Shown piece by piece: positions 4,659 through 5,601 of a stretch of DNA of 64,000 nucleotides. The stretch spans positions 748 to 64,747 of the forward strand of contig JAFUBW010000002.1 of the NCBI GenBank assembly GCA_017459965.1. The letters are read 5' to 3'. The position numbers were made by a program, and so were the translations under genes. Each line of letters begins with the position of its first letter. Position 1 is the first letter of the stretch. Source of the stretch: Bacilli bacterium. Its GTDB lineage: Bacteria; Bacillota_I; Bacilli_A; RF39; UBA660. The notes below the pieces were generated by a model. It saw only the letters and a program-made list of their open reading frames with translations, ran no database searches and had not been told where the DNA came from.

Positions 4659-4679
4659 AAAGAGATTAATTATCTCTTT
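4659..4679. terminator. Hairpin between convergent PBP and noc genes
   Basis: AAAGAGAT/ATCTCTTT 8-bp stem with a 5-nt loop overlapping the noc stop codon. An A-run on the plus strand gives a T-run for the minus-strand transcript. Confidence 0.5.
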
Positions 4680-5601
4680 CTACTTTAATTACAAATTGAT
4701 ACAATCCATCAAAATCATATTTTTCAAGTGTTGCATCAAATCCTAAATCATTTATTTCTTTTAATACTTTTTCTATTTTATTAATAACATCATTAAAATC
4801 AGGTCTTAAATTTGATAAATCCTCATCCATTACTTCAATTTCCTCATCTTTAGGAACAACAATATTATCTATACTAATAGTATTATTTAATAAATTATCA
4901 AGTTCCTTCATATCATTATCTGCTTTTGATAAATCAATCATTTCTGGAAAATCAAATGTTTTAGATGTTAAATTTGATACTGGTATAAATTTATCATTAT
5001 TTAATTTTTCACTTATTAAATTTTCTGTATCCCTTACATTTAATCTATTATTTAATATTTCATGTAATACTTCTTTTTGTATATTTTTATCATCTAATCT
5101 AAGTAAGCTTCTAGCATGTCTTTCTGATATTTTATTATTTAAAAGAGCTTCTTGTACTTCATCATCTAGATTTAAAAGTCTTAATTTATTTGATATAGTA
5201 GCTTGTGTTTTACCCATTCTACCTGCTAGTTGATCTTGTGTTAAATAACCTCTATCAAGTAATTTTTTATAAGATTTAGCTTCTTCTATTGGGGATAAAT
5301 CTTTTCTTTGTATATTTTCAACAATAGCTACTTCGGCTGATTCATTATCATTTAAATTTATAACAACAGCTGGTACTTCAGATAAACCAGCAATATAAGA
5401 TGCTTTATATCTTCTTTCCCCTGCGATTATTTCGTATTTATCACCTATTTTACGTAGTACAAGTGGTTGAATTATTCCATGTTGTCTAATAGATTCTGCA
5501 AGTTCATTTAATCCTTGTTCATCAAAAGAAAGTCTTGGTTGAAATCTATTTGGAATTATGTCATCTAATGATACTTGTATTATTTCTTTTTCTTTATCCA
5601 T
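4666..5601 (-). CDS. noc: ParB-family protein, Noc-type (nucleoid-occlusion-like), N-terminally short
   Basis: ParB boxes are present: [29 protein letters not shown]. The HTH region [14 protein letters not shown]...ISERHARSL aligns without gaps to B. subtilis Noc ([14 protein letters not shown]...ITERHARAL). It sits directly downstream of rsmG as noc does. ATG 5601 is preferred (SD AGGGTGA); GTG 5610 is the alternative. Confidence 0.75.
   Translation of the reverse strand: [311 protein letters not shown]

Follow-up and report, generated by a model that had tools for sequence, protein, structure and literature searches.

The question raised by this locus is what a DNA-binding protein of the Noc type does when it lacks the N-terminal helix with which Noc attaches DNA to the membrane. 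The gene concerned lies in a 64,000-nucleotide stretch of a Bacilli bacterium genome (assembly GCA_017459965.1; contig JAFUBW010000002.1, positions 748 to 64,747), which is referred to here as the window and numbered from its first nucleotide. The gene occupies positions 4666 to 5601 of the minus strand (stop codon, 4666 to 4668) and encodes a ParB paralogue of 311 amino acids (aa). The window (G+C content, 24.4%) covers the origin region of the genome, since dnaA starts at position 15661. An initial annotation, made from the sequence alone, had described the gene as a truncated noc and had proposed that its product either took over centromere binding or coexists with a ParAB system encoded elsewhere. 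On the basis of sequence comparisons, we consider it probable (roughly 0.65) that the protein is a clamp of the Noc lineage that depends on cytidine triphosphate (CTP), is specific for the Noc-binding site (NBS), and acts on the origin side of the chromosome without a membrane tether.

In agreement with the initial annotation, family models, structures, and phylogeny all identified the protein as Noc type. Two Pfam domains were detected (ParB_N and HTH_ParB), and the top NCBIfam model was TIGR04285 (Noc; 288.4 bits over model positions 1 to 199; curated cutoff, 315 bits). When the linker described below was deleted, the score was 294 bits and the alignment extended over positions 1 to 254 of the 255-position model. 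The best PDB matches were Noc structures (214 bits), while the B. subtilis and Thermus Spo0J structures scored 172 to 179 bits; for the DNA-binding segment alone, the corresponding values were 59 to 65 bits for Noc and 28 to 39 bits for ParB. The helix-turn-helix and recognition region (aa 130 to 166; positions 5104 to 5214, minus strand) aligned without gaps to the Noc structures, as originally claimed, and the Noc and Spo0J sequences given with that claim matched PDB entries 7ol9 and 6sdk. Foldseek also ranked Noc first, and the DNA-binding domain superposed on that of the Noc-NBS complex (6Y93) with a template modeling score of 0.90. In a neighbor-joining tree (188 columns; 200 bootstraps; few canonical Noc sequences), the noc-like family grouped with canonical Noc (100% bootstrap), whereas Firmicute Spo0J formed a separate clade (100%) that included the Spo0J proteins from the same lineages of metagenome-assembled genomes (MAGs) as the noc-like family. 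Of the B. subtilis Spo0J sequence in this tree, the DNA-binding part was checked against 6sdk. Monophyly of the branch lacking the helix received only 40% bootstrap support.

The residues that read DNA point in the same direction. As described by Jalal et al. (2020; PMC7383237), four positions switch specificity from ParB (RTAG) to Noc (QKKR), Q173 reads adenine 1 and R201 reads cytosine 6 of the NBS, and NBS reading requires no more than one permissive lysine, at either 179 or 184; the dual-specificity variants of the published screen mostly carry T or S, and not R, at position 201. The window protein has Q133, K139, N144, and R161 at these positions, and both the specificity scheme and the Q/K/N/R assignment given by the initial annotation were thus correct. 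Three of the four residues are identical to those of Noc and the fourth (N144, equivalent to position 184) is permissive. The ParB signature (R at 173 and a small residue at 201) is absent, with Q and R in its place. The Spo0J proteins that some relatives encode in addition carry R and G at these two positions.

The protein is nevertheless short at its N terminus, where published work places the membrane-targeting helix (approximately aa 1 to 10) in all Noc homologues examined (PMC4331003 and PMC8429893). In B. subtilis Noc, the corresponding box is preceded by 38 residues, among which are those of the membrane-targeting helix (10 aa), of another helix, and of a loop. In the window protein, the IPNRFQPR box (aa 16 to 23; positions 5533 to 5556, minus strand) is preceded by only 15 residues, which carry a net negative charge, and the AlphaFold model of the protein contained no N-terminal helix. 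The LG.GL motif that stimulates ParA was also not found in the window protein; it is present as ALGKGLEELF in the Spo0J-type proteins of relatives. The initial annotation, which had counted about 18 residues, was thus right that both N-terminal elements are missing. It follows that a genuine member of the Noc lineage can be without the helix, as this protein is.

The short N terminus is not due to a misplaced start. The intact open reading frame (ORF) begins at an ATG preceded by a AAGGGTGA ribosome-binding site, and the GTG at 5610 that opens the mechanically called ORF (18 residues before the box) lies within this ribosome-binding site. The 51-nucleotide spacer between rsmG and the noc-like gene (positions 5602 to 5652, minus strand) holds the AAGGGTGA site and two in-frame stop codons, as read from a translation of positions 5572 to 5721. 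These stops make an N-terminal extension impossible and dispose of the suggestion that an upstream in-frame stretch might restore an amphipathic helix. A short open stretch upstream of the gene in two relatives (L002 and L005; relatives and other contigs are given as L numbers) was also rejected as an extension; a conserved hairpin and the ribosome-binding site fall within the same sequence.

Among the putative CTP-binding motifs, FQPR, GERR, and ENIQR are invariant in the family alignment, as are the equivalents of Noc R88, R89, and N121, all of which are present in the window protein; Noc requires R89 and N121 to bind CTP. The variant arginine patch reported earlier was confirmed as GERRYKA (aa 61 to 67; positions 5401 to 5421, minus strand), with K66 in the position of the third arginine, Noc R91. 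A lysine at this site is fixed across the family (149 of 150 representatives). R91A is the only arginine-patch mutant of Noc that still forms foci and is the mildest of the patch mutants, and Spo0J R82A retains spreading.

Downstream of the confidently modeled N-terminal and DNA-binding domains, AlphaFold predicted disorder from aa 204 to 266, followed by a small C-terminal helix-strand-strand domain. The acidic linker (aa 204 to 264; positions 4810 to 4992, minus strand; predicted local distance difference test [pLDDT] score below 50) carries the short motifs FIxVSNL, TFDFPE, and EIEVM that are conserved in the family alignment. The C-terminal domain (aa 265 to 311; positions 4669 to 4809, minus strand; pLDDT, approximately 75 to 85) consists of one helix and two strands and is conserved among the family members. 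Its resemblance to Noc, noted in the initial annotation, held in that the C-terminal 52 aa matched the Noc model alone (positions 213 to 254), but the match was weak (E = 0.025).

The features that the initial annotation listed as atypical are all present, but they are not an oddity of this gene. A scan of species-representative genomes yielded 80 loci from uncultured gut MAGs, labeled Bacilli, Tenericutes, Mollicutes, Clostridium sp. CAG:433, CAG:302, or Firmicutes CAG:321. All 80 noc-like relatives had 13 to 19 real residues before the box, GERR[Y/F]KA in the arginine patch, and Q-K-(N/S/A/T)-R at the specificity positions. When 1.84 billion cluster representatives were searched exhaustively, the picture was similar for the best 150 (mutual identity of at most approximately 50%; median length, 478 aa): every one had a short N terminus, aligning from its first residues, and the Noc-type Q..R pattern, while GERRxKA was found in 149, PNRFQPR in 146, and QKNR in 123. 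The linker, measured in 145 of these, had a median length of 214 aa and consisted of approximately 20% D/E; it spans 60 to >500 aa across the family and ends in a conserved C-terminal motif. Long linkers were considered as places for a hidden domain or membrane segment and rejected, since a Pfam scan of the ten longest representatives detected no domain in their linkers and the family showed no hydrophobic segment. Where the source annotation gave a name, it was only [quoted passage not shown] The family is uncharacterized and comprises at least 150 clusters (50% identity), every one of them from gut-type Bacilli that are uncultured. The short N terminus, the patch, and the residue pattern are neither artifacts nor peculiar to one genome, and since a large family conserves the truncated form as its wild type, this form must have a function.

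Sites for both types of protein occur near the origin. One perfect 16-bp NBS (TATTTCCCGGGAAATA; positions 24542 to 24557, with the match at 24543) lies just downstream of gyrA; the consensus searched, ATTTCCCGGGAAAT, is the exact B. subtilis consensus and had this single perfect match in the window. Four perfect parS sites were detected, compared with 0.05 expected by chance: parS 1 (TGTTTCACGTGAAACA; positions 24638 to 24653), parS 2 (25206 to 25221), parS 3 (25272 to 25287), and parS 4 (25320 to 25335), the last being just upstream of dnaX. All of these sites fall within the gyrA-dnaX gap, around tadA and the gene for the signal recognition particle (SRP) RNA. The initial annotation had reported a dense parS array next to the noc-like gene; the four perfect sites bear this out, but they are 19 kb away rather than beside the gene, and the perfect NBS had gone unmentioned. 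The SRP RNA gene is of the small type (Rfam RF00169, 56.8 bits; positions 24692 to 24779, plus strand) and lies between parS 1 and tadA. Around the NBS (positions 24517 to 24575), two copies of an 11-bp unit, AAATACGAACA, flank the site and an inverted GAACAAA...TTTGTTC extends the palindrome; the closest relatives all retain a CGAACAAAATATTTCCCGGGAAAT block unchanged, while the adjoining spacer is variable. The possibility that this NBS is merely the terminator hairpin of gyrA was rejected; related DNA contains 107 occurrences of the same 14-mer, frequently within arrays.

To place these sites in a wider context, the same region was retrieved from 80 related metagenome contigs with GyrA as bait, of which 65 had enough sequence past gyrA. 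In the gyrA-dnaX gap, perfect parS sites were present in 50 of the 65, perfect NBSs in 33, and both in 25 (127 parS and 52 NBSs in total), compared with 8 parS and 24 NBSs in 0.97 Mb outside the gap. The closest relatives (GyrA, 88% identical) have an NBS right after gyrA, then tadA, and then four to six perfect parS sites. In some relatives, units of 61 bp or 77 bp are repeated in tandem in the gap, with up to 14 copies, and each unit contains one NBS-type and one parS-type site whose starts are 24 to 37 bp apart. Such arrays occupy the gyrA-tadA gap at L128:4376-5467 and L114:4117-4455, with copy numbers of 14 for the 77-bp units and 5.6 for the 61-bp units; in the same gap, L157:12493-12752 has four perfect NBSs at 82-bp spacing without parS. 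The two types of site seem to have been amplified together. Across 2.6 Mb of related DNA, the shared backbone T.TTTC.CG.GAAA.A returned 157 pure parS, 107 pure NBSs, and 2 others, and none of these 266 sites was a half-parS/half-NBS hybrid. So sharp a division between two classes of site, each maintained by selection, points to two proteins that differ in specificity.

This raises the question of where the protein that serves parS is encoded. The gene order rsmG-noc-soj-spo0J is usual, rsmG being the usual upstream neighbor of noc. Here the rsmG-noc order is retained, with rsmG (gidB) at positions 5653 to 6357 on the minus strand (Pfam GidB, identified on an identical same-strain contig), and the place of soj-spo0J is taken by a convergent class A penicillin-binding protein gene (positions 2727 to 4655, plus strand; Transgly and Transpeptidase domains). 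This convergent arrangement, which the initial annotation had recognized, recurs beside the noc-like gene in approximately 25 relatives. The noc-like gene closes the usual origin-side operon of rnpA, yidC, jag, mnmE, a gpsA-like gene, mnmG, and rsmG. The gpsA-type glycerol-3-phosphate dehydrogenase gene (positions 8295 to 9245, minus strand) sits between mnmE and mnmG in a slot that is variable, with other inserts in several relatives.

No second ParB-family gene and no ParA were detected in the 64 kb by tblastn with the real Soj and Spo0J sequences of relatives, and the noc-like gene is thus the sole ParB-family gene of the window, as originally stated. A B. subtilis Soj query likewise found no Soj in the 64 kb, in agreement with the relatives' sequences. 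To extend the region, we used same-strain contigs from ENA (ruminant gut project; 99.99 to 100% identical to the window; matched via RpoC, a DUF1016 fragment, and ArgS), namely, ERZ28654056 scaffold_229 (138,950 bp) and ERZ28654190 scaffold_238 (138,077 bp). From -9.5 kb to +72.8 kb (82 kb), these contigs contained neither soj nor a second parB, and no parS or NBS was found there beyond those of the window. The window ends inside tilS (position 63390 onward, plus strand), and several relatives have the order tilS-ftsH-soj-spo0J, but the candidate location of soj-spo0J just past the right end was rejected for adjacency; the same-strain contigs show a conjugative element after tilS-ftsH. This element begins approximately 3 kb past the window end and encodes, in L175 and L178, KilA-N, MerR, a type IV secretion system coupling protein, and a 950-aa TrbL-like protein. 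The soj-spo0J module could lie beyond it.

At 12 of the 80 genome loci of relatives, soj and a canonical Spo0J-type ParB lie within 10 kb of the noc-like gene, and 11 of these are intact. The Spo0J-type proteins have the N-terminal ALGKGLEELF peptide, GERRxRA, and the R..G residues. At L044:1450-2020 (CP091726.1, a closed 1.46-Mb MAG chromosome), the Spo0J-type gene beside soj is apparently split in two frames by a frameshift or an assembly error; if real, the split would leave a disabled ParB beside an intact noc-like gene. In lineages with a visible Spo0J, the noc-like protein shows the QKNR pattern and a recognition helix nearly equal to that of the window protein, which therefore shows no sign of a changed target. 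The module itself was found by rnpA on the other strand; farther downstream of the noc-like gene, behind uvrB, lgt, and trxB; behind ddl; behind tilS-ftsH; and upstream of rpmH. It is thus very mobile in this group (at least five locations), and its absence near the origin is therefore weak evidence. A search of the protein database with profiles of the relatives' Spo0J-type proteins gave best 120 matches that all belonged to other clades, a result that is uninformative since a Spo0J of the window clade is expected to be only approximately 52 to 60% identical. Given this mobility, the suggestion of the initial annotation that ParAB is encoded elsewhere is the better of its two readings, and it is very probable that this genome encodes a separate canonical ParB, although none was seen from -9.5 to +72.8 kb. 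The accompanying expectation that such a soj-spo0J pair would make the gene an ordinary noc does not hold, as the defining membrane helix is absent regardless.

In the mechanism that we favor, the protein most likely binds the 16-bp NBS palindrome through its Noc-type recognition residues, and its ParB-type N-terminal domain most likely binds CTP and closes to a sliding clamp that spreads from the NBS. With the N-terminal amphipathic helix absent, the protein would be unable to attach DNA to the membrane by itself in the manner of Bacillus Noc. The long acidic linker, which takes the place of a short one and carries the short motifs, and the putative Noc-like C-terminal dimerization domain would be the likely output end, probably binding a partner. 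Most loading sites would be those near the origin in the gyrA-dnaX gap, where they adjoin parS sites or alternate with them, and a second nucleoprotein complex would form next to the ParB-parS complex, with parS being served by a canonical ParB encoded outside the stretch read. Several points weigh against this scheme. The score of the protein (288 to 294 bits) is under the curated Noc cutoff (315 bits); position 184 is N, a residue for which no individual test was seen in Jalal et al. (2020); and since only origin-proximal DNA of relatives was sampled, the concentration of NBSs at the origin may reflect sampling bias. In addition, the lack of a parS-type ParB in the 82 kb around the origin makes the two-protein model indirect for this genome.

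Comparison with characterized systems delimits the proposal. With the Noc proteins of B. subtilis and Geobacillus thermoleovorans (7OL9, 7NFU, 7NG0, and 6Y93; TIGR04285), the window protein shares the FQPR, GERR, and ENxQR motifs, the PNRFQPR box, the Q, K, and R recognition residues, the NBS consensus, rsmG upstream, and a clade with 100% bootstrap support; its C-terminal domain resembles that of Noc weakly. Unlike these proteins, it lacks approximately 23 N-terminal residues that hold the 10-aa helix and spacer, has the patch GERRYKA rather than GERRWRA and N (or S/A/T in the family) rather than K at position 184, has no adjacent soj-spo0J, and belongs to a family with an acidic linker of 60 to >500 aa and with NBSs clustered and interleaved with parS. 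It starts approximately where the truncations NocNΔ10 and NocNΔ26, engineered from the Noc proteins of B. subtilis and Geobacillus, start (Adams 2015, PMC4331003; Jalal 2021, PMC8429893). According to these studies, NocNΔ10 still binds CTP with NBS DNA, and the truncations show neither liposome binding nor nucleoid-occlusion activity. ParB/Spo0J proteins (6SDK, 1VZ0, 4UMK, and 6T1F) share the fold and the CTP-binding motifs, with approximately 44 to 51% identity over 190 residues, but the window protein differs in lacking the LG.GL peptide, in having Q/R where ParB has R/G, and in having no adjacent parA.

The alternative that survives best, although we regard it as unlikely, is that the protein is still a nucleoid-occlusion factor and that its membrane link or division block is provided by something else, such as a partner bound to the linker motifs. 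Its Noc ancestry and weakly Noc-like C-terminal domain fit this idea, as do the short conserved motifs in an otherwise unstructured linker. NBSs outside the arrays also occur at a density of approximately 1 per 52 kb, similar to that in B. subtilis (approximately 70 sites in 4.2 Mb). Moreover, a heterologous helix can stand in for the N terminus of Noc in published work, and the tether is therefore modular. However, no amphipathic or hydrophobic segment occurs anywhere in the family, the linker has no recognizable domain and varies greatly in length, and the coamplification of NBSs with parS at the origin is unexpected for a factor that coats chromosome arms. NocNΔ10, with its similar start, is also nonfunctional in Bacillus (PMC4331003 and PMC8429893).

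We consider it improbable that the protein is instead a CTP-dependent transcriptional regulator for which NBSs are operators in promoter regions, as the repressor KorB of plasmid RK2 (8QA8/8QA9) might suggest. KorB was among the structural matches, shares the ParB fold, and acts from palindromes without ParA-type segregation, but with only 26 to 27% identity, a different C-terminal part, and a different partner, it is a functional analogy only. Of the 107 perfect NBSs, 79 are intergenic even though ORFs cover approximately 88% of the DNA; several relatives have a perfect NBS 100 to 300 bp upstream of the noc-like gene, and the NBS of the window has gyrA on one side and the SRP RNA gene and tadA on the other. 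Much of this intergenic bias, however, reflects the arrays of the gyrA-dnaX gap, and coding sequence with 24% G+C can hardly accommodate palindromes that are rich in G+C. Tandem arrays of up to 14 units resemble loading platforms rather than operators, and the window clade has no NBS near the noc-like gene.

The other reading of the initial annotation, in which this would be the sole ParB-family protein of the genome, binding parS or both parS and NBS, loading SMC, and organizing the origin without ParA, is very improbable: four perfect parS sites must have a binder and neither soj nor a second parB was seen in the window or in the same-strain sequence around it, but Q133 and R161 are NBS-reading residues, the recognition region hardly differs from that found in QKNR relatives with a canonical Spo0J of their own, parS and NBSs stay distinct with no half-and-half hybrids, the dual-specificity variants of the published screen (Jalal et al., 2020) mostly lack R at position 201, and the scatter of soj-spo0J over at least five places in relatives leaves its absence at the origin with little weight.

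An NBS-specific clamp without a tether would be of wider interest. In the literature, the N-terminal membrane helix is regarded as central to what Noc does, and this family retains the specificity and the NBSs without it. It therefore offers a natural experiment both on what a Noc-type clamp does when it is unable to touch the membrane and on whether DNA specificity or membrane binding came first once ParB and Noc had arisen by duplication. The interleaved arrays suggest that a single centromere region can accommodate two orthogonal ParB-like clamps, a situation of which we know no prior description. A more tentative extension, which we hold to be possible rather than likely, is that the protein is a second CTP clamp of the centromere and not a membrane-tethering division inhibitor, loading at NBSs that coevolve with parS, in some cases within tandem NBS+parS units. 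It would then work with ParB in origin organization or segregation through its acidic linker and C-terminal domain, and it may do so in a spore-forming gut lineage. The family could also represent an evolutionary state in which NBS specificity existed without the membrane function.

Genes of a sporulation type are present in and beside the window. Within it, spoVT-like, yabG-like, spoVG, yabP, and yabQ genes were identified (positions 35823 to 36341, 42346 to 43122, and 43819 to 44746), and the left flank of the same-strain contigs carries rpoE, prfA, prmC, spoIIR, murA, rpmE, rpiB, and spoIID, with spoIIR and spoIID just left of the window (L181:14033-14572 and 20487-21416). Judged from this gene content, an organism with a small 24% G+C genome from a lineage often labeled Tenericutes/Mollicutes may form spores. 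RpoE in this flank is 157 aa long, compared with 151 aa as called from a later start.

Two further genes lie toward the right end of the window. A DUF1016/YhcG-type nuclease gene (positions 62455 to 63360, plus strand) is split by a stop near 62815, such that a 119-aa N-terminal part was called and the rest is open in frame; it is identical in 14 contigs and is probably a pseudogene. Directly after rpoC, positions 58613 to 62365 (plus strand) encode a 1,250-aa secreted protein with Listeria-Bacteroides (Flg_new) repeats, which is 1,246 aa long in the same-strain contigs.

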